13,881 bases of DNA from a bacterium. GTDB lineage: Bacteria > Zhuqueibacterota > Zhuqueibacteria > Zhuqueibacterales > Zhuqueibacteraceae. The position numbers and the translations under genes were made by a program. The stretch is from NCBI GenBank assembly GCA_044869275.1, contig JBIOXB010000097.1, positions 1 through 13,881 on the forward strand, read 5' to 3'. Positions 1,872 to 11,679 of this stretch are shown piece after piece. The notes under the pieces were generated by a model. That model saw nothing but the letters and a program-made list of their open reading frames with translations. It was not told the origin of the DNA and did not search any database. The first letter of the stretch is position 1. Each line of letters opens with the position of its first letter.

Positions 1872-4580
1872 TTAGGTTGTTGGCTTCCTTGCCTCAAAGA
1901 TTGCCCGGCGTCCGCCGGCCAAAATCTGTTCGGCGCTGACGGAGGCGAAGACATGCATCAGGCTGGCAACCGTGCCGCTCCAGCCGGTTTGATGGCTGGC
2001 GCCGAGGCCGGCGCCGTTGTCGCCATGAAAATACTCGTAGAACAAAACGTGATCCCGCCAATGCGGATCGTCTTGAAACTTCTTCGCGCCACCGAACACC
2101 GGTCGACGACCGTCCTTATCGAGCAAGAACATGCTCGCCAGTCGCCCGGTGATATCCTTGGCAACTTCGTAGAGTGTCTTCAGCTTCCCGGAGCCGGTCG
2201 GACACTCGATTTTGAAATCATCGCCATAGTACACATAGAAATTCAGCAGCGCGCGGATGATGAGCGCGTTCACCGGCATCCAAATCGGGCCTCGCCAATT
2301 GGAGTTGCCGCCAAACATGCCGTTATTCGACTCCGCCGGCAGGTAATCCACACGATGCTCCTGACCCTCCGTATGGAATATGAATGGATGTTCCGCATGA
2401 TAGCGCGACAGCGCGCGCAGCCCATACGGACTCAGGAACTCCTTCTCATCCAGCATCACGGAGAGAACCCGGCGCAGCTTTTTCTCATCAAGGATCGCCA
2501 GGAGTCGACGGTCACCGTGGCCCGGCATACCGGGATGATGGATGTTTGCCACCAGGTCGGGACGTCTCTCCACAAACCAGCGGGCACGGGCGCGGATCTC
2601 AGGGATTTTTTCCAGCATCTCGGACATGAGAACGGTCGTGGCGCAGAGTGGAAGTAAGCCCACCATCGAGCGCACCTTCAGCCGCTGGGAACGCCCATCT
2701 GGCATGCGCAGCACATCATAAAAGAAACCGTCTTCCTCATCCCACATTTCATCCTGATGCTCGCCCACCCGGTCCATGGCGGACGCAATCCAGATAAAAT
2801 GCTCGAAAAATTTCAGCGCCATATCCCCGTAAACAGGATCGTGCAGGGCGAGCGCCAGCGCGATTTCCAGCATGTTCTGGCTGTACAGCGCCATCCACGC
2901 GGTGCCATCGGCCTGCTCCAAATGCCCGCCGGTGGGCAGCGGCGCGCTGCGGTCAAAAACGCCGATATTGTCCAGCCCGAGGAATCCGCCTTGAAACACA
3001 TTCTTGCCGGTGAGGTCCTTGCGATTCACCCACCAGGTGAAATTCAACAGCAATTTGTGAAAAGCGTGTTTGAGAAAAGTTATGTCGCCCTCGCCGCTTT
3101 GCAGCTGCTCATGGATGTAAGTGGTAATGGTGGCCCAGGCATGCACCGGCGGATTCACATCGCTGAAATTCCATTCATACGCCGGAATCTGGCCGCTGGG
3201 ATGCAAGTAATGCTCGCGCAGCATCAAATCCAGTTGCTGCTTGCCAAAATGGGTATCCACCAGCGAAAGGGGGTGGATATGAAAAGCCAAATCCCACGCC
3301 GCGTACCAGGGATATTCCCACTTGTCCGGCATCGAGATCACATCAGCATTCACCATGTGAAACCACTGATCGTTGCGCGGGGCCGGACGCTTGCGCGGCG
3401 AGAGCGGATCAGAACCGCGCTCCACGAGCCATTCTTCGATATCAAAGTCGTAATATTGTTTGCCCCACAGCATGCCCGCCAGCGCTTGGCGAAAAACGTT
3501 GCGCTGATCATCATTGAATGACGCCGGCGCGACCGCAGTATAGAAAGCATCTGCTTCTTGCTGGCGCGCGGTGAAAATCTTGTCGAACTGGCTGCCAAAG
3601 GGATTGCTGGCTGACGCGGCCCCGCTCAGCCGCAAGCGAATGGCAACGGATTGTCCGGCGCCGACCGTGACTTGATAATGCGCGGCGGCTTTGGTTCCAA
3701 TTTTTTTCGGATTCACCGCGTCTTGCCGGTTGTGGACAATATAATTGTTGATGCCGTCTTTGACGTAGGGCGTGCGATTGGCAACGCCGAAGATGCGCTC
3801 GGTGTTGGTTTCGTTTTCGGTAAAGAGCAGGGGCGTGCTTCCTTCGGCATAAAAATAGCGCGCGCCCAGCTCAGGATGCGAAGCTTCGATCGCGCTGAAG
3901 TCTTTGCCGGCCGCGCTTTGTTTCATCACCGGCTTCGCTGCCTTCTCATACCACGACCAGGTGTTGCGAAACCACAGCGTCGGCAGCACGTGCAGAGTCG
4001 CGGCTTCCGGGCCGCGATTATGAACGGTGACCCGAATCAAGATATCTTCCGGCGAGTCTTTGGCATATTCGACAAAGACATCGAAGTAACGATCTTGATC
4101 GAACACACCGGTGTCGAGCAATTCATATTCAAATTCTTCGCGGCTGCGTTCCCGATTGGTCGTGACGAGATGGTCATAAGGATATGCCGCCTGGGGGTAC
4201 TTGTAGAGATACTTCATGTACGAGTGCGTCGGCGTGCTGTCGAGATAGAAATAGTATTCCTTGACGTCCTCGCCATGATTCGCTTCGCTATTGGTTAAGC
4301 CAAAGAGCCGTTCTTTGATGATGGGATCCTTGCCGTTCCACAGCGCGAGCGCGAAGCAGAGCTTTTGCTGGTCATCAGAAATGCCGGCAATGCCGTCTTC
4401 GCCGCGGCGATAGGCGCGCGAGCGGGCCTGATCGTGCGTGAAGTAATCCCAGGCATTGCCGCCTTCACTGTAATCTTCGCGCACCGTGCCCCATTGCCGC
4501 TCGCTGAGATACGGACCCCATTTCTTCCAGGGCAGATTTTGCTCCTGCGCTTCTTGCAGCCGTAGATGCTCTTTTTCCAT
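1872..4580 (-). CDS. GH63/MGH1-like glycoside hydrolase (glucosidase), 902 aa
   Basis: Family motifs WKKWGPYLSERQWGTVREDYS, HGEDVKEYYFYLDSTPTHSY, SMPDKWEYPWYAAWDLAFH, FGGNSNWRGPIW and FYEYFHGDNGAGLGASHQTGW; strong SD upstream. Confidence 0.92.
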   Translation of the reverse strand: MEKEHLRLQEAQEQNLPWKKWGPYLSERQWGTVREDYSEGGNAWDYFTHDQARSRAYRRGEDGIAGISDDQQKLCFALALWNGKDPIIKERLFGLTNSEANHGEDVKEYYFYLDSTPTHSYMKYLYKYPQAAYPYDHLVTTNRERSREEFEYELLDTGVFDQDRYFDVFVEYAKDSPEDILIRVTVHNRGPEAATLHVLPTLWFRNTWSWYEKAAKPVMKQSAAGKDFSAIEASHPELGARYFYAEGSTPLLFTENETNTERIFGVANRTPYVKDGINNYIVHNRQDAVNPKKIGTKAAAHYQVTVGAGQSVAIRLRLSGAASASNPFGSQFDKIFTARQQEADAFYTAVAPASFNDDQRNVFRQALAGMLWGKQYYDFDIEEWLVERGSDPLSPRKRPAPRNDQWFHMVNADVISMPDKWEYPWYAAWDLAFHIHPLSLVDTHFGKQQLDLMLREHYLHPSGQIPAYEWNFSDVNPPVHAWATITTYIHEQLQSGEGDITFLKHAFHKLLLNFTWWVNRKDLTGKNVFQGGFLGLDNIGVFDRSAPLPTGGHLEQADGTAWMALYSQNMLEIALALALHDPVYGDMALKFFEHFIWIASAMDRVGEHQDEMWDEEDGFFYDVLRMPDGRSQRLKVRSMVGLLPLCATTVLMSEMLEKIPEIRARARWFVERRPDLVANIHHPGMPGHGDRRLLAILDEKKLRRVLSVMLDEKEFLSPYGLRALSRYHAEHPFIFHTEGQEHRVDYLPAESNNGMFGGNSNWRGPIWMPVNALIIRALLNFYVYYGDDFKIECPTGSGKLKTLYEVAKDITGRLASMFLLDKDGRRPVFGGAKKFQDDPHWRDHVLFYEYFHGDNGAGLGASHQTGWSGTVASLMHVFASVSAEQILAGGRRAIFEARKPTT

Positions 4581-4582
4581 TT

Positions 4583-4590
4583 GCTCCTCC
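4583..4590 (-). promoter_or_regulatory. Shine-Dalgarno (GGAGGAGC) of the GH63 gene, directly preceded by a small hairpin (GAAGTTA/TAACTTC, 4594-4624)
   Basis: Minus strand reads GAAGTTA...TAACTTC AGA GGAGGAGCAA ATG. Confidence 0.7.
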
Positions 4591-4628
4591 TCTGAAGTTA
4601 TTTCTACTTAGCCAGATTAACTTCGGTG

Positions 4629-4688
4629 GCCCGCTAAACACGCGACATCCACTAAAAAGCTTTTGCGTTTTTCGTGTGTTTCGTGGGC
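4629..4688. repeat. Imperfect palindrome built of 9-nt-period units (CACGAAA-type)
   Basis: Left arm GC CCGCTAAAC ACGCGACAT CCACTAAAA; reverse complement of right arm GC CCACGAAAC ACACGAAAA ACGCAAAA. Confidence 0.7.
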
Positions 4689-4756
4689 ATAAGTTCTAAT
4701 ATGACCATGTAGGATTGTGAGATTTTCGTGTTAAGCTTTCATCATCATCGCGTGTT

Positions 4757-5767
4757 TTACAATCCGCCCAGCCAGCTGTGTTGATAGCCGACCACGAATG
4801 CATCAAAATCCGATCCTGCTCTGGTGGCTGCGCCGGTGTGCACCAGCGCTTTCAGGGCGTGCTGGCGCCCGACCGGCACCGAAAACGTGGCGCCGATGCG
4901 CCAGTTTTTTTGAAAATCACTCTTGAAATTTCCATTCACTGAGGTCTCTCCGCCATCGGCGTAGCCGCCATTCACCGCCAGCCAAAGCCCGGGCTTGAAC
5001 ACGTAACTCACGTGGCCTTGCACGGTCAGCAGCGGCTTCTGCTCGAGCCGCGAGGTGCGAAGATACTCGGTATTGTCCATGAACAGCCAGACGCCGCTAA
5101 AGGCTTCGAGATACCATTTGCCCAGCCGCTGCGAGACGCCGAGCTCGGGTTTGAAAGACCAGCGATTCGAGCCGAGGTTGACGATTTTGCTCTCGTCGTA
5201 CTGGCCAATCGGCAAGGAGATGACGAGACTGGCGCCGGCAATGGTTTTCTGTCGGTAATTCCGGAACTCTCGGGGAGCAAGCGCGGGTGCGCCGATGAAA
5301 TTCACGGAGACGCGCACGCGCGCATCCGCAAAGCCGGTACGCGTTCCGCTCGTGTCCCGTCCCGCGACCTTTAAATCGCCCGCGAGCCAGGTGAACGGCA
5401 CCAGCACTTGCACTTTGCCGTGCATTCCGAAAAAATTCATGGCGCGGACATAGCCGGCACCCACACCATGCGCCGTGACGCGAAAGTCCTCGACGGGAAG
5501 GGAAGCATCGACAATAATATTGCCGCGCGACAAGCCATAAGTCGCCGCCACGAAGTTCATTCCCACCGGAGCATTGGAATAGGCCCGCGGTTCCAGTTCT
5601 TGCGCCGAAGCCAGGCCGAGAGGCAAAGCCCAAAATCCAAAATGCAAAATCCAAATTCCAAAACTCAAAGCCCAAATTTCAAAATTCAGAATCGAAATGA
5701 AGGGCACACCTCGGGACATTGGATTTGGGGCCTTGAGATTTGAGCTTTGAGCTTTGGGCTTGTTCAT
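4757..5767 (-). CDS. Putative outer-membrane beta-barrel 'transporter' (MetA-pathway/phenol-degradation-like family)
   Basis: A-S-A|QELEPRAYSNAPVG mature start, GFAD-x-R, P-x-GQYD...NLGSNRW-x-x-KPELG motifs, amphipathic strands and a YQHSW end. ATG 5765-5767 overlaps the upstream TGA (ATGA). Alternative start at Met17 (5719). Confidence 0.78.
   Translation of the reverse strand: MNKPKAQSSNLKAPNPMSRGVPFISILNFEIWALSFGIWILHFGFWALPLGLASAQELEPRAYSNAPVGMNFVAATYGLSRGNIIVDASLPVEDFRVTAHGVGAGYVRAMNFFGMHGKVQVLVPFTWLAGDLKVAGRDTSGTRTGFADARVRVSVNFIGAPALAPREFRNYRQKTIAGASLVISLPIGQYDESKIVNLGSNRWSFKPELGVSQRLGKWYLEAFSGVWLFMDNTEYLRTSRLEQKPLLTVQGHVSYVFKPGLWLAVNGGYADGGETSVNGNFKSDFQKNWRIGATFSVPVGRQHALKALVHTGAATRAGSDFDAFVVGYQHSWLGGL
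5625..5759. repeat. Heptamer palindrome element E3, inside the 5' end of the transporter ORF
   Basis: A-arm of 10 units (5625-5694: AAAGCCC AAAATCC AAAATGC AAAATCC AAATTCC AAAACTC AAAGCCC AAATTTC AAAATTC AGAATCG), 23-nt loop, T-arm of 6 units (5718-5759). Confidence 0.92.
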
Positions 5768-6630
5768 TTCATCACCGTGAAAGCTTGCTTGAGACTGACT
5801 TCCACCAGGGTTCCGGCGGGGATTTGAATTTGGCCGCCGGAGCCAAGCAATGCCAGTGCACCGCCAACGGCCGCGCCAGCAGCGGCGTCGCCGGCAGCCG
5901 CACCAATGAGCGCTCCGGCACCGACCTTGCGAGCGGTACCCGCCCTGCCGCCCTCGGCGCCAACGTCATCAGTGGCGATGGCGACCAATTGATTATCGAT
6001 GCTGATTTCCGTAAAAGTCGCGACCAATCGCTGCGTGCCCACGCGTTTGCCGCCGCTGGATTCCAAAACTTTGCCATAGACTGTGGTACCCTTGGGCGCA
6101 ACCACGACACCATTGGCGATCAAATTGGCCTCCAGCACCGCCGTAAACTTTGCACCTGTTTGATGCGTCGCCGTGCCGATTTCGTCCTTCGTCTTCAGGG
6201 TCAGCTTGGTGCCGGCTGCGACGGTGACCGGCTTAGGCTCCGGCGGTGCGGGTTTCGCTACTGCCGCGGGGCTTTCGGGCTGAGCCGTTGGCGTTGATTT
6301 GGGTGGCGGCGTTGCCTGGACCGCGGGCCTCCCCGCCTCCGGCGTGCTTCCTGCGCCTCCTGACGCAGCCAGGTACACGGGCTTTTCACCTTCCTTGAGC
6401 GTCAATGAATAAACCTGATCCATGGCAATCTCGCGCACCTCGCCGCCGGTCTCGAACTTGATCCCGGCATCCGTGCGCGAGATCAGCTCGCCTTTGAGTA
6501 TGGTGCCGTCTTTGAGCACCAGAGTGTGAGCCTCTGCTTTGGCTTTCTTGCCGCAGGAAATGCTCATCGCTGCGATGAGCGCCAAGCTGCAGAATAAAAG
6601 CAAGCGTCGCACTGTCTTTGGGGATAGCAT
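5764..6630 (-). CDS. Predicted lipoprotein: small N-terminal beta domain, Pro/Ala linker, TrbI/VirB10-like C-terminal domain with glycine zipper (288 aa)
   Basis: Signal with lipobox-like SIS|C26; linker ATPPPKSTPTAQPESPAAVAKPAPPEPKP; AGT-x-L...P-x-GT-x-V-x-G-x-V...GAGALIGAAAG...IPAGT pattern; SD AAGGAG upstream. Confidence 0.65.
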   Translation of the reverse strand: MLSPKTVRRLLLFCSLALIAAMSISCGKKAKAEAHTLVLKDGTILKGELISRTDAGIKFETGGEVREIAMDQVYSLTLKEGEKPVYLAASGGAGSTPEAGRPAVQATPPPKSTPTAQPESPAAVAKPAPPEPKPVTVAAGTKLTLKTKDEIGTATHQTGAKFTAVLEANLIANGVVVAPKGTTVYGKVLESSGGKRVGTQRLVATFTEISIDNQLVAIATDDVGAEGGRAGTARKVGAGALIGAAAGDAAAGAAVGGALALLGSGGQIQIPAGTLVEVSLKQAFTVMK

Positions 6631-6647
6631 GATCGATCTCCTTGTTT

Positions 6648-6736
6648 AAAATCCAAAGTCCAAAGTCCAAAGCCCAAAATGCAAAACCCGATATGGAAAA
6701 GATAATCATTTGGGCTTTGGAATTTGAGTTTTGTGC
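6648..6736. repeat. Heptamer palindrome element E4
   Basis: A-arm AAAATCC AAAGTCC AAAGTCC AAAGCCC AAAATGC AAAACCC (6648-6689), 19-nt loop, T-arm TTTGGGC TTTGGAA TTTGAGT TTTGTGC (6709-6736); upstream gene stop at 6741-6743. Confidence 0.92.
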
Positions 6737-6740
6737 TTGT

Positions 6741-8942
6741 TCATTTGAGCTCTGCCGTTTTCACCTCAGCGCCGGAAGGCGGAGCTTTGATGCCATTGAG
6801 CGTTCGCGCCACGCCGACCACGTCGCCGGTGCGGTAGAAGTCCACCGCGATCAGGTTTGGCAATTGCCGGCGTTCTTTTTGGCACTCCCGCGCCCGTGCC
6901 AGCAGAAAGTCGTAGGCATTCACGATTTCGGCATTGCTCGGCTTTGGCGCGGGCGTGGTCTCGATCCAATGGTTGATCATAAAAAAGGGCGCTGATTTGT
7001 CGCCGCGATTCGGCCGGCAGGAGAAATCTTCAGGCTTATGAAACGTGTAAGGCGTTTCCTGAATGTACTCGAAGGCCTGATGATACCAGGACACTCCTGC
7101 ACTGTTGTTTTCCGCGAAAACGACCACGCGCTGATCGCTGGCAACCATTTCCCGCAAGGTGGGCCAGGGCGGCGCCATCGGCCCGCGATAAACGAAGTCA
7201 ATGAGACCGCTCTCCTGAAAACAAGCTTCGATGTCTTGCGGCGTAACGCCTTCATCCTGGATGACGATCATTAGCACCTCGTTGGGATTCATCACGAGAA
7301 ACTCCCGAATTTGTACAAGCGTCGGGACCAGCGGGCTCGCGCCCAGCTCGCAGAAGCCATGACACATGTATACGCCACGCTCTCCTTCTTCACTGCCGAC
7401 CAAGCGGTCGCGAATGCGCATCGCGGCATCAACACCCTCTTTGCCCAGCACCGCTTCGTATTTTTTGCGCGCCGTCCCTTCGTCTTCGAGATGGGTTTTG
7501 ATCTTGTCCTCTACCGGCACGCCATAAAGCGCATCGATGAGGAAGCCGCGAATGCCGTGATCCAACTGTGCCGGAATGCCTTTCTCATGATTCGGAAACA
7601 GCCAATTCGGAACATCTGCCCCGGACATGGAATTGTGCGAGGCCGGGAAAACGACTTCATTGAGTCTGCGATCACAAAGCTCCGGATAGCCGTTGCAGGC
7701 CTCGATGGTCTGCGGCGCTGCTGTGGTTTCCGCCGTGCGCGTCAGAAAAAATACGCCCGCTCCTACGAGCACGACGGCGGCCGCGCCGACTAAAAGAACA
7801 CGACCCAGCGGCAAGCTACCTTCCTCGGCAGCAGAGAGGTCTTCGGTTGCTTTCTGAACTTCCGCATGAGGAAGAAAGCGCAGCAGCAGGCTAAAAAGCT
7901 CACGCAGGCCAATGAAGAAGATGAGGAGTCCGGCCAGAAAGGCGAAGATCGTCAAGGCAGCGTTGGGGGCGAGGCTGATCAATCCGCCCACCAAAAGCAG
8001 CACCACGCCGCGCAGCAACCATGTCCTCGTGCTTACCGCTGGAATCGTGAGCCAACGCCATACGGCCCTGCCCATCTCTTCCAATTTCACCCGTTCAAAT
8101 AAGGAGTTCACCGCGGCGGCAAGGATGAGGCCGATGCCTCCCAGCACCAGTGCCCACGTCATGAAGCCGCCGAGAAAGGCGCGCCACATGCCGGCGGCAG
8201 CCTGGCCAATCGCGGGATCGCGCGCCAGGTGCGCGAGAATTTCTCCGCCGAATCTCACGGTCAGGCGCAACACCAGCGCGATAATCGCGAGGCTGACACC
8301 GAGGCGAAACAAGCTCATGCGGTGCGCCGGCGAAAGCATCACACCAACAACGCACATGCCCACGCCAAAGATGATCAGGGCAAGCGCGCTCAAGCGCGAG
8401 CGACGGGCGACGCGCATGAAATCGAGAGCTATCTGGCCGCCTGGCGCTTCATCGGAGTCTCCGACCAGAGCCGTGACTTGCGGCGGAATTTTTTTGGCCA
8501 GCTCCGGATTGGTTGACAACGCGCTGTGCAGAATCACTCCGACGTCCGACAAATTGAGCAGCATGCGCTGGGCGCGGCCGGACATCATGGTTTCGTGGCC
8601 CGCACGCGCGGCCCGGCGCACAATGCCGCGAAAAGGCTCCGAAGCGATCATCGTGCGCGTCGTGGCGGAGATGATCGGCCCAAACGCGGTGAGATCGCGC
8701 TGCTTGGCGATCAGGCCCGCGGTGACGCGATCGGCAATGAGCGCGGACACGCCCGGATCCGCCAGACCCGCCGCCACACGATCGGCAAACGCTTCCGAGT
8801 TGAACAACACCCGCGAGGCATACGCCAGCAAGACGCCGAGCGTCAAAGCGACAATGCCCAGCACACTGCAAGCCGCCCCGAGGTAGGCGCGGACTGACTT
8901 GCGGTTTCGCGATACTTCTGACGAAGTGGTCGAGGTGCTCAC
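6741..8942 (-). CDS. Multi-pass membrane protein fused to a C-terminal PI-PLC-X-like phosphodiesterase domain (~733 aa)
   Basis: Several hydrophobic helices in the N-terminal ~400 aa. C-terminal CNG-x-x-ELC-x-R, HNS, QL-x-x-GIR-x-x-x-ID, CHG, FL-x-x-NPNEV, WPTL-x-EM and PN-x-IAVDFY motifs. Start reassigned to GTG 8942 behind SD GGAGGAG; the ORF-track extension is translated repeat E5. Confidence 0.8.
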   Translation of the reverse strand: MSTSTTSSEVSRNRKSVRAYLGAACSVLGIVALTLGVLLAYASRVLFNSEAFADRVAAGLADPGVSALIADRVTAGLIAKQRDLTAFGPIISATTRTMIASEPFRGIVRRAARAGHETMMSGRAQRMLLNLSDVGVILHSALSTNPELAKKIPPQVTALVGDSDEAPGGQIALDFMRVARRSRLSALALIIFGVGMCVVGVMLSPAHRMSLFRLGVSLAIIALVLRLTVRFGGEILAHLARDPAIGQAAAGMWRAFLGGFMTWALVLGGIGLILAAAVNSLFERVKLEEMGRAVWRWLTIPAVSTRTWLLRGVVLLLVGGLISLAPNAALTIFAFLAGLLIFFIGLRELFSLLLRFLPHAEVQKATEDLSAAEEGSLPLGRVLLVGAAAVVLVGAGVFFLTRTAETTAAPQTIEACNGYPELCDRRLNEVVFPASHNSMSGADVPNWLFPNHEKGIPAQLDHGIRGFLIDALYGVPVEDKIKTHLEDEGTARKKYEAVLGKEGVDAAMRIRDRLVGSEEGERGVYMCHGFCELGASPLVPTLVQIREFLVMNPNEVLMIVIQDEGVTPQDIEACFQESGLIDFVYRGPMAPPWPTLREMVASDQRVVVFAENNSAGVSWYHQAFEYIQETPYTFHKPEDFSCRPNRGDKSAPFFMINHWIETTPAPKPSNAEIVNAYDFLLARARECQKERRQLPNLIAVDFYRTGDVVGVARTLNGIKAPPSGAEVKTAELK

Positions 8943-8956
8943 AAAACTCCTCCTTC

Positions 8957-9043
8957 CAAATTTTAAATCCAAAGTCCAAAATCCAAAAATCAAATCAATC
9001 TCGCTTGTCGGCCTTCTTGAGTTTTGTGCTTTGGGCTTTGTGC
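8957..9043. repeat. Heptamer palindrome element E5
   Basis: A-arm CAAATTT TAAATCC AAAGTCC AAAATCC AAAAATC (8957-8991), 24-nt loop, T-arm CTTGAGT TTTGTGC TTTGGGC TTTGTGC (9016-9043), 5 nt from the stop at 9049-9051. Confidence 0.88.
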
Positions 9044-9048
9044 TTTTG

Positions 9049-9951
9049 TTAAAATGTTATGGAAAAACCGAGTTTCAAGGACTCGAATGTCAAGGGTGTC
9101 TCGGTCTCAAAAGGCCAGTTCATACTGTCGCGCATCTGCCAATAGTAAAGGTACGTCATGCCATTCTGAAGAACGAAATACAAAATGGGCCCCAGAACGG
9201 GCGAGGAGCCCACGATTTGCTCTCCGTACAAAGCGATCCCGGAATAGCCGATGGACTGCAAGGTAAAGCTGCCGAGCCATTTGGCGAAGAGATGCCGGGG
9301 AAAAATCACGGCGTATTCGTACCCGCCGGTGAGCGAAACGGCCTTGAACAAGCCCAGTTTGATGCCGGCTTCAGAAGCCTGGCCGAATCGGAAAGAGCCT
9401 TGGTATCTGTCCAATAACTGGATCTCCTCGGGCGACAGCCCTTCTGTGCTGCCGGGCTCGACTTTGGTCCAAGCCAGAGAAAGAAAGGCATACGGCAAAA
9501 GATCGAATGCTCCGGCCCTATAGCCATATCCCGTGCGGTTGCCAGTGCCGAATCTGGTGGCCTTGGTGACCTCGGCTCCCACGGCTTCGTAGTTATAATC
9601 CATGTCCTTCGAAATGTAGCTACCGTACAAATAACGGTCATCAATGGAGTAGATGTGATCCTTGAATTGTTTGATCTCGCTGAAGCCGATTTTGATCTCC
9701 GCCAGGCCGACTTCGGAGAAATCAATTGCAAAGCCTCTGTGTTTAGGCGTGCCCAGGCCGTAATTCGCTTCGAGGAAGGGACGAAAATCACCTTTCCATG
9801 CCCAATCCATGGGATTCTCCGAACTGCCGCTTTTAGCTGCTTGAGCCGTATCGCTTCCGGCAGGAGACAGTCGCGTTGCCTGTGCAACCAGTTCTTGCGA
9901 GCACAAGGCTGCCATGAACAGAGTGACAAGACAGAGCTTGCTTTTTGCCAT
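9049..9951 (-). CDS. Hypothetical exported protein, probable outer-membrane beta-barrel (~300 aa)
   Basis: Signal-like MAKSKLCLVTLFMAALCSQELVA|Q after SD AAGGA; alternating-pattern strands; C-terminal LKLGFSITF barrel signature. Alternative start ATG 9999 overlaps the upstream TGA. Confidence 0.65.
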   Translation of the reverse strand: MAKSKLCLVTLFMAALCSQELVAQATRLSPAGSDTAQAAKSGSSENPMDWAWKGDFRPFLEANYGLGTPKHRGFAIDFSEVGLAEIKIGFSEIKQFKDHIYSIDDRYLYGSYISKDMDYNYEAVGAEVTKATRFGTGNRTGYGYRAGAFDLLPYAFLSLAWTKVEPGSTEGLSPEEIQLLDRYQGSFRFGQASEAGIKLGLFKAVSLTGGYEYAVIFPRHLFAKWLGSFTLQSIGYSGIALYGEQIVGSSPVLGPILYFVLQNGMTYLYYWQMRDSMNWPFETETPLTFESLKLGFSITF

Positions 9952-10660: not shown

Positions 10661-10776
10661 GAAATTCAAAATGCAAAATTCAAAATCCAAAGTTCAGACC
10701 TCATGCGAGGGTTTTTGAATTTTCCGCATCACCGCTTGGGCTTCGTATTTTGGATTTTGTGCTTTGGCCTTTGTGC
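10661..10776. repeat. Heptamer palindrome element E6
   Basis: A-arm GAAATTC AAAATGC AAAATTC AAAATCC AAAGTTC AGACCTC (10661-10702), 32-nt loop with inner ATGCG/CGCAT, T-arm of 6 units (10735-10776) abutting the PPK2 stop; fills essentially the whole intergenic space. Confidence 0.9.
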
Positions 10777-11679
10777 TTACTTATTCAGCAACGCCTTTTT
10801 GATTTCGGCCAACTCCTGCATTTTTTCCTCGCTGACTTCCGGATATTTCAGGTCGAGTCCAGCCAGCGTATCGATAACCGCGGCGGCAACGACCAAGCGC
10901 GTGAACCATTTGTTGTCGGCCGGCGCCACGTACCACGGCGCCTGTTTTGTCGCCGTATGGCAAATCATATCCTCGTATGCTTCCATATAATCGCCCCAGA
11001 ACTCGCGTTCTTTGGCGTCGGCGGCGGAGAATTTCCAGTGCTTCTCCGAATTGTCCAGGCGTTCCAGGAAGCGCTTTTTCTGTTCTTTTTTGGAAACATG
11101 CAGAAAGAATTTGCAGAGGGCGATGCCGTTGTGCGAAAGGTAGCGTTCGAAATTGCGGATGTCTTCGAAACGCTCCTGCCAAATGTCTTTGGTGATGAGC
11201 TCGAGCGGGAGCTTTTGCTTCTCCAAAAACTCGGGATGCGTCCGCACCACCAAGACTTCCTCGTAATAAGAACGGTTGAAGATGCCGATGCGGCCGCGCT
11301 CCGGCAGGCATTTCGTGCAGCGCCACAGATAGTCATGGTCGAGATCATCGCTCGTCGGTGCTTTGAACGAAAAAACCTGGCAGCCCTGCGGATTGACGCC
11401 GGACATGACGTGCTTGATGGCGCCGTCCTTGCCGGCGGCATCCATGGCTTGGAAAATGACCAGCACCGCCCACTTGTCCTGCGCATAGAGCCGTTCCTGC
11501 AATTCTGCCAATGCCTCCACGCCCATTGCCAGCGCTTCCTTTGCGCGCGGCTTGTCTTCATCTTTGAATTCGAGCGTATCGCCGGGGTCAAAGTCCTTTA
11601 GGCGAAAATCTTTGCCATTGGTCACTTGAAAAGGCGCGGCGAGCTTGCGCGCCGATTTGATGATTTCTTTGATTTCCAT
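10777..11679 (-). CDS. ppk2: Polyphosphate kinase 2 family protein (polyP:nucleotide phosphotransferase, probably class III)
   Basis: Walker A QAMDAAGKDG, FKAP, HDYLWR, Walker B region IFNRSYYEEVL, K-x-FLHVSK-x-EQ, WKFS and APWY; SD GGAGGT upstream. Confidence 0.93.
   Translation of the reverse strand: MEIKEIIKSARKLAAPFQVTNGKDFRLKDFDPGDTLEFKDEDKPRAKEALAMGVEALAELQERLYAQDKWAVLVIFQAMDAAGKDGAIKHVMSGVNPQGCQVFSFKAPTSDDLDHDYLWRCTKCLPERGRIGIFNRSYYEEVLVVRTHPEFLEKQKLPLELITKDIWQERFEDIRNFERYLSHNGIALCKFFLHVSKKEQKKRFLERLDNSEKHWKFSAADAKEREFWGDYMEAYEDMICHTATKQAPWYVAPADNKWFTRLVVAAAVIDTLAGLDLKYPEVSEEKMQELAEIKKALLNK

Follow-up and report, generated by a model that had tools for sequence, protein, structure and literature searches.

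The window analysed here is a stretch of 13,881 bp that constitutes the entire contig C97 in the 6.67-Mb assembly G000 (54.8% G+C) of a bacterium of the Zhuqueibacteraceae. On its minus strand, an open reading frame (ORF) at 4757..5767 encodes a 336-residue protein of the Phenol_MetA_deg family, and the first 48 or so codons of this gene lie inside a hairpin element composed of heptanucleotide repeats. Judged from sequence comparisons, it is likely that this element supplies the working export signal of the protein. According to the explanation that we favor, a palindrome of the intergenic type, (NNNCAAA)n–loop–(TTTGNNN)n, would have been captured into the 5' end of the gene, where it would now encode most of a Sec signal peptide, namely the hydrophobic h-region and probably also the start codon and the n-region.

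Parts of the leader

An earlier note on this DNA had placed the element in frame in the 'transporter' ORF, and this is borne out by the leader itself, whose residues 1–56 are MNKPKAQSSNLKAPNPMSRGVPFISILNFEIWALSFGIWILHFGFWALPLGLASAQ. Translation of the A-rich arm (KPKAQSSNLKAPNP) gives basic and polar residues that represent a candidate n-region, and the T-rich arm (ILNFEIWALSFGIWILHFGFWALP) gives the sole hydrophobic stretch ahead of ASA|QELEPR, that is the candidate h-region (Table 1). The element is all that separates the conserved cleavage site from the upstream stop codon. Since the T-arm and Q56 are separated by PLGLASA only, there is no room for a second h-region, as the note had also stated.

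The product matches Pfam PF13557 (Phenol_MetA_deg, 'transporter') over residues 99–309 (E = 4.1e-19; bit score 70, cutoff 22) and has 2476 homologues at E ≤ 0.001. In the N-termini of homologues, QE.EPR directly follows the signal peptide, and a looser version of the motif, with at least 12 leading residues, could be parsed in 93 of 119 sequences (P0004–P0122). QELEPRAY, which the window protein displays at residue 56 straight after its leader, was thus rightly described as a family-typical start. The residues at positions −3 and −1 (A-S-A|Q) form the commonest pair of the family, A/A being present in 33 of the 93 parsed signals. As judged by comparison, the c-region and the cleavage site are ancestral rather than derived from the repeat because G-L-A-x-A|QE is common to relatives lacking the element (SGLALA|QE in L005, PGLTLS|QE in P0006). 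The claim that a palindrome encodes an 'entire' signal peptide is well supported for the h-region and fails for the old, non-repeat c-region and cleavage site; translation of the A-arm as n-region is likely, with a net charge of +3 ahead of the h-region from M1, yet it depends on which in-frame start codon is used.

In the explanation favored here, translation would re-initiate at ATG 5767 by coupling with termination on the upstream gene, and the ribosome arriving from that gene would melt the 26-bp main stem of the hairpin (5757–5731 paired with 5684–5658). The A-arm would then give a long n-region of Lys, Asn, Gln, Ser and Pro. The T-arm would provide the h-region, as F, L, W, G, I, C and A abound in all frames of a TTTGNNN array; the c-region would come from the ancestral GLASA, and signal peptidase I would cut before QELEPR. 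Assignment of the T-arm as the predicted h-region is well supported: it is the only candidate because an outer-membrane barrel under selection must be exported and no other hydrophobic segment is available.

Several observations weigh against this explanation. Counted from M1, the leader comprises 55 residues as compared with a family median of 23 (93 parsed signals), its uncharged run of 25 residues exceeds the 95th percentile of the family (21), and its best 9-residue Kyte-Doolittle mean of 2.12 is low within the family range (median 2.81; 5th–95th percentile 1.83–3.53). Moreover, E30 and H42 lie near or in the hydrophobic stretch. The stem begins 8 nt after ATG 5767, which should hinder initiation, and gene-calling programs placed the start elsewhere (at M17 in P0003, at a TTG in P0004). 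The ATGA coupling is not conserved in the orthologous locus L006, and in L004 the upstream gene is a mere remnant. Taken alone, a long element that can be read through in one frame is not exceptional, given that 7 of 42 frames are open from end to end in the elements of at least 100 nt (n = 7), and the orthologues are kin, so that their agreement is not independent. Matches of metatranscriptome contigs were confined to positions 5760–5930, where the upstream gene P0002 has its 3' end; they leave the element uncovered and permit no inference on its transcription.

Table 1. Positions of the leader parts, of other elements and genes in the window, and of related arrays elsewhere (contig names are given for positions outside the window)
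Feature	Position	Strand	Remarks
Start codon 1 (ATG)	5765..5767	-	overlaps TGA 5764-5766 of upstream ORF 5764..6630 (ATGA)
A-arm, codons 3-16, about six imperfect NNNCAAA heptamers	5720..5761	-	in-frame reading KPKAQSSNLKAPNP
Hairpin loop, codons 17-25	5692..5719	-	reads MSRGVPFIS; holds ATG 5719-5717 (codon 17) and GTG 5707 (codon 21)
T-arm, codons 26-49, ten TTTGNNN heptamers	5621..5691	-	in-frame reading ILNFEIWALSFGIWILHFGFWALP
c-region LGLASA with A-x-A motif, non-repeat	5603..5620	-	Q56 (5602-5600) opens mature QELEPRAY
Predicted mature outer-membrane protein, 281 residues plus stop	4757..5602	-	PF13557, homologues, dN/dS
P0002, 288 residues, lipoprotein-like N-terminus, no Pfam match	5764..6630	-	elements on both sides begin AAATGAACAAGC
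Sister element	6648..6756	-	between 750-residue ORF and P0002; TGA of the 750-residue ORF (6741-6743) inside AAATGAAC
Elements at stop codons	76-180, 1661-1885, 5621-5767, 6648-6756, 8943-9063, 10661-10780		edges TAAATCC..., AAATGAAC..., TAAGCAC...
TTTGCY-array leaders	C33, C76, C95, C137, C179, C184, C185, C191, C195, C223 (two genes), C242 (two genes)
Further TTTGCY-array leaders	C30, C36, C139
Heptamer microsatellites in G025	C1:513513-513670, C3:718163-718292, C6:16989-17125

Orthologous leaders, start codon and history of the locus

Three close orthologues also carry such an element in frame. These are L004, which contains L002 and belongs to genome G001 of the same genus (all data on G001 rest on an unpublished genome), L006, which is the locus of P0005, and P0014, which is known as a protein only. 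L004 is 87% identical in the mature part and has the leader MKISKTLNSKHKAQNSKFKFQSPRGCALHLNLEVWIFCFGFWALLLDPASA|QE; L006 is 84% identical and has the leader MNRYKTKNSKPKTQVSKYYARRLAFVFWLLYPGLAAA|QE. In P0014 (78% identity; 88% over 172 aligned mature columns) the leader consists of 57 residues, rich in K, N and Q and then of the FGFWIL type. Common to all four element leaders are an ATG at the outer A-arm edge and a frame that remains open through loop and T-arm into G/P-x-A-x-A|QELEPR. An in-frame TAA lies immediately 5' of this ATG in L006, and nothing further upstream can thus contribute to the leader there. By contrast, ordinary leaders of about 20 residues are present in L005 (82% identity), P0006 (71%) and more distant homologues. 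The earlier note had suggested examining orthologues for normal, non-repeat signals, which is what L005, P0006 and sequences beyond them have but the three close orthologues do not. A word-index homology search with residues 1–55 alone returned only the protein itself (one match among four candidates) and is uninformative on other repeat leaders.

The gene is not a pseudogene. For all six pairs among G000, L004, L005 and L006, dN/dS of the mature part is 0.107–0.156 at dS values of 0.33–0.83, and the 278–281 aligned codons contain no stops or frameshifts. These values speak against a disruptive insertion, whereby the signal peptide would have been lost and the gene would be dead or its product trapped in the cytoplasm. 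The leader is indeed atypical in length and hydrophobicity, and annotation P0004, which starts at the TTG at the end of the T-arm (MLLDPASAQE...), would leave an orthologous outer-membrane protein without a signal peptide. Yet none of the three orthologous DNAs has an interruption of the required frame within the element (they are kin and do not represent independent trials), and stop and charged codons are depleted in the frame of the T-arm. Already disfavored by these data, a disruptive insertion is extremely improbable.

The depletion becomes apparent when the T-arm is compared with the 123 other paired T-arms, in which stop or charged codons account for 14.7% of 2988 codons (three frames). 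In the window, 22 codons after E30 are free of both, an outcome with a chance of about 0.03, and the reading frame of the T-arm looks as if it had been cleaned of such codons. The note had argued for selection for read-through on the basis of the TGN trinucleotides in the heptamers. Its count was correct insofar as the ten units contain three in-frame TGG and three TGA in frames +1, +2 and +1, which leaves frame 0 open and closes the others. As evidence of selection the count is not significant, since, for three TGA in ten units, 35 of the 120 possible arrangements avoid all three in-frame positions; TGA makes up 224 of 805 units in arms of this type.

In-frame start codons are found at codons 1, 17, 21, 34, 41 and 48 (ATG 5767, ATG 5719, GTG 5707 and three TTG). 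Initiation at ATG 5767, at the outer edge of the A-arm, is the choice to which we incline, if only mildly. This ATG is conserved in all four leaders, provides the n-region charge of +3, is preceded at a distance of 3 nt by a GGTGAT motif (read from the sequence), and overlaps the upstream stop codon as the earlier note had pointed out, an ATGA junction that is also present in the same-genus relative (L004/G001). Sites of the AAGGAG type are used elsewhere in the genome, as read ahead of P0002. Initiation at ATG 5719 in the loop is less likely; the T-arm would be the h-region whichever of M1 and M17 is the start.

The choice of start codon bears on an alternative that we consider rather unlikely, in which only half of the element has acquired a coding function. 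Translation would begin inside the element, at ATG 5719 or at a TTG of the T-arm, the A-arm would be an untranslated leader RNA, and the T-arm would still be the h-region; the hairpin would then present the start codon in its loop. Besides the five in-frame starts downstream of codon 1, this model is compatible with the stored annotation P0003, which starts at M17, and with purine-rich motifs in the loop 5' of these starts (AAGG in G000, AAGAGG in L004), and initiation in an apical loop needs no melting of the stem. It is weakened by the n-region charge, which is 0 from M17, and by L004 and L006, which have no equivalent ATG in the loop and whose TTG options give leaders without a basic residue (MNLEVW..., MAFVFW...). 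Furthermore, four of four orthologues keep the ATG at the A-arm edge together with the open frame, and in L006 an in-frame stop immediately precedes this ATG.

Gene order around the element is conserved and comprises the 750-residue ORF, P0002 (present or not), the Phenol_MetA_deg gene and a GH63-like gene. P0002 is whole in G000 and a remnant in L004, and no match to it was found in L005 and L006. In L004 (2280–2480), the C-terminal part of P0002 is located directly behind an orphan A-arm, and in L006 (2370–2440) AAATGAAC occurs twice, 50 nt apart, after the 750-residue ORF. The shared beginning of the two elements flanking P0002 (AAATGAACAAGC) and the duplicate AAATGAAC in L006 suggest that P0002 was gained or lost between two copies of the element.

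A tree computed from the mature parts unites the five closest sequences, and within this group L005, with its ordinary leader, and L006, with the element, are sisters (support 100/100). At least two events are needed to explain this relationship. Forcing the four element-bearing sequences together costs 29.2 log-likelihood units (AU p = 0.009; the group was named after the tree had been seen). A single capture, after which the 5' end was replaced in L005, would be slightly preferred to two captures at the same junction because the AAATGAAC edge and the junction are shared. The leader DNAs of L005 and L006 upstream of the c-region are not alignable (score 2 against a shuffle mean of 6.0). Two other small genes are inserted in the upstream region of L005, and within the spacer at L005 1300–2210 there are a short fragment of a membrane protein and an outer-membrane-like ORF, apparently frameshifted, that ends in GYTF.

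Heptamer palindromes and T-rich arrays in the genome

All long ORFs read in the window are on the minus strand, and most of the spacers between them hold an AT-rich palindrome consisting of an NNNCAAA heptamer run, a loop and a TTTGNNN heptamer run. Being palindromic, this design reads A-arm first and T-arm second on either strand. Strict runs of at least three units number 108 for TTTGNNN and 108 for NNNCAAA on the plus strand of the genome as compared with 8 and 9 in the reversed sequence. They were adopted in place of a relaxed heptamer detector, which was dropped since it called 384 arms but also 85 in the reversed control. Genome-wide, arms within 90 nt of each other are paired in the order A-then-T in 59 cases and T-then-A in one; the leader element is one of the 59.

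These elements are of two kinds. In the first, which is conserved and dispersed, a short heptamer hairpin is enclosed by fixed flanks to give a repeat of about 110 nt; by their flank pattern, at least 24 of the 59 pairs are of this kind. The repeat is found in both orientations with the flanks AAATCTGTGCTTTTTGAGCAAAGAA ... TTCCGGCTTGTCCGGGTTATG (for example at C223:125151-125260, C79:12855-12960 and C232:140-250) and is often in frame with the next gene (NLCFLSKEIQNPKLKIQ...). The second kind, to which the window elements belong, has longer arms and loops that differ individually. In six of six window elements read, the A-arm begins on the stop codon of the upstream co-directional ORF or within about 3 nt of it; the six ORFs end at 170, 1872, 5764, 6741, 9049 and 10777. 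At 1661-1885, two elements are arranged in tandem as a 96-nt direct repeat (86% alike). The frame of the sister element upstream of P0002 stops in the loop, and P0002 has a separate AAGGAG ribosome-binding site.

Placement of the elements on stop codons would fit a function in mRNA processing or stability, or in coupling the translation of neighboring genes. A scan of positions 4500–7000 for the terminator consensus detected no intrinsic terminator (a G+C-rich stem followed by a T run) at the leader element, whose stem is rich in A-U and G-U pairs; the last 30 nt or so of the T-arm (5621–5651) are outside the stem. No Rfam family was matched, the two sub-threshold hits to plant miRNA precursors scoring 29.7 and 24.4 bits against a gathering threshold of 101.7. 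The fold z-score of −0.55 is uninformative as shuffled A-rich and U-rich halves still pair. Because the hairpin is kept in all three orthologues with readable DNA (G000, L004 and L006) despite dS values of 0.6–0.8, the leader bases may still serve a role at the RNA or DNA level that is typical of the intergenic copies. Work cited in PMC4679880 reports that a cold-shock protein binds T-rich heptamers with one protein per unit. One RNA contig, derived from a 93%-like relative, continues beyond ATGAACAA for 14 nt of A-arm-like sequence.

The earlier note had proposed that these elements can be exapted as ready-made export signals and that their in-frame occurrences should be counted genome-wide. 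A crude gene set was compiled from 4933 ORFs of at least 100 residues (longest start, greedy selection), which covers 86.6% of the genome. Strict T-runs are present in the first 60 codons of 33 of the 4933 ORFs, while the rest of the coding DNA contains four (37 against 0.8 per Mb); array density is thus 45-fold higher in these initial codons than in the remaining coding DNA. Shuffling the codons of these same 60 positions 20 times gave no array or one. By inspection, the 33 genes fall into two groups. In 17 there is an upstream A-arm, and 14 of these show a later start or a separate leader, which probably places the palindrome in the 5' untranslated region. Another two (C142 and C115) are ambiguous, and only the gene at 4757..5767 lacks an alternative start or h-region. 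The ORF at C142:40582-42454 (+) is gamma-glutamyltranspeptidase-like and has a whole element of the conserved type in frame upstream of a short leader, MLFLVALFLCEDAQPQA.

No A-arm accompanies the T-run in the other 16 genes. By eye, 13 of them contain TTTGCY arrays that form the h-region (FAFCLLLFAFC...) in leaders ending in A-x-A or a lipobox. A family scan of seven of the 13 and of the gene on C139 placed eight of eight in envelope families: ABC_trans_aux lipoprotein, LptC, TraF_2-like barrel, TonB-dependent receptor, NHL lipoprotein, TPR lipoprotein, LolA-like and periplasmic binding protein. Orthologues of three such genes in five family members likewise have heptamer-periodic leaders with other unit numbers in G001, G003, G009 and G002, and ordinary leaders in G004. 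At C230:110300-110420 (+), an amidase-like ORF of 696 residues contains a long GGCTTTC/GCTTTTG heptamer run read as FRLSVFGLRFWDHAFWLLSFGLLWSGC, which is possibly a second T-arm-type leader with a lipobox-like end.

Four-unit runs number 157 in G000, 81 in G001 and 1–71 in the remaining 17 family genomes; outside the family they are mostly absent. Controls with the backward pattern are near 0, with one or two in G025, G021, G032, G011, G037 and a few others. In G025, a member of the same order, (TTTGCCA)n, (TTTGTGC)n and (TTTGCTG)n occur as perfect microsatellites of at least 20 units, unlike the imperfect arrays of G000.

Our survey supports a model in which T-rich heptamer DNA readily makes h-regions in this lineage and capture of a whole palindrome is a rare special case. 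The proposal of ready-made export signals was thus apt for free T-rich arrays, which are common and make up the h-region of at least 13 other leaders, and weak for whole palindromes, with one of 17 candidates. On a broader and more tentative reading, a 7-nt slippage or repeat process in this genus might continually yield TTTGNNN arrays as general raw material for new export signals, to which they would be suited because every frame is hydrophobic and mostly free of stops. A single in-frame capture of a palindrome would then deliver start codon, n-region and h-region together, and changes in unit number could tune or switch export.

The array might also be considered a phase-variation switch, in which slippage would add or remove a 7-nt unit and thereby shift the frame. 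According to PMC3960869, the opa genes of Neisseria carry CTCTT coding repeats in the region of the leader peptide and provide a precedent. In both systems, a short tandem repeat whose unit length is not divisible by three lies within the coding sequence of the signal peptide; in the window there are ten tandem units, and unit number in orthologous signal-peptide arrays differs between species. The opa repeats, as described there, are perfect pentamers acting as a high-frequency on/off switch, whereas the heptamers of the window are imperfect, with varied NNN that make slippage less likely, and are part of a hairpin without visible length polymorphism. In contigs from three DNA runs, all belonging to one study and one of them possibly the source run, the sequence was identical and free of indels, although contigs hide rare variants. 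In addition, all orthologues examined are in frame, and the internal repeats of the T-arm are spaced by 21 nt, or three units, and keep the frame. We therefore regard such a switch as very unlikely.

Relation to known repeats and significance

Palindromes within coding regions have a counterpart in the Rickettsia palindromic elements (RPE), which Ogata et al. in 2000 reportedly found inserted in frame in protein-coding genes. Like the RPE, the window element is a dispersed palindrome that is located in an ORF, predicted to be translated, and compatible with a functional host gene. The RPE, however, are said to be conserved in sequence and to reside in the body of the protein, whereas the window element shares with its kind only the heptamer design and normally abuts intergenic stops; the two are not related in sequence, and we know of no RPE that acts as an export signal. 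The intergenic palindromic repeats of other bacteria, such as REP/BIME, ERIC and Correia, have conserved consensus sequences. They resemble the window elements as short imperfect palindromes between co-directional genes that are transcribed as hairpins next to stop codons, and differ from them in that the class described here is defined by its 7-nt periodicity and by an A-rich arm 5' of a T-rich arm (59 against 1). Autotransporters possess an extended signal peptide region of about 50 residues in which a long N-terminal extension precedes a normal h- and c-region. The long extension is shared with the leader described here, but theirs is a conserved protein motif and ours the translation of a DNA repeat.

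Heptamer repeats are also known from cyanobacteria, where they are referred to as STRR. The TAACTGA heptamer repeats of the Beggiatoaceae are abundant, lineage-specific and intergenic near gene ends, according to PMC4679880. With these and the STRR, the window elements share lineage specificity, the 7-nt tandem unit and an intergenic position near gene ends; the TAACTGA repeats differ in being direct repeats of one fixed unit with stop codons in the forward sense, and signal peptides are mentioned nowhere in PMC4679880 (0 occurrences). PARCELs, as presented in PMC2996958, are protein-domain repeats of 25 residues within mature surface proteins. They too are coding repeats with dyad symmetry in membrane-targeted proteins, but the window element is a single hairpin that would form a signal peptide.

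A search of the open-access literature for signal peptides encoded by repeats yielded no paper on a palindromic repeat that supplies a signal peptide. Evolution of signal peptides is usually ascribed to point mutation of existing leaders. In the case described here, a non-coding repeat appears to have replaced most of a leader and to have persisted through speciation. If this is true, selfish or structural DNA can create a protein-targeting sequence in one step, and the same bases would be subject to the constraints of both an RNA hairpin and a coding sequence. Such genes would also be prone to mis-assignment of their starts by gene callers, as illustrated by the two public calls that disagree, one of them removing the signal. 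Leaders of this kind, which are very unusual in being rich in aromatic residues and glycine and in comprising 37–58 residues, represent a natural set for probing the tolerance of the Sec system.

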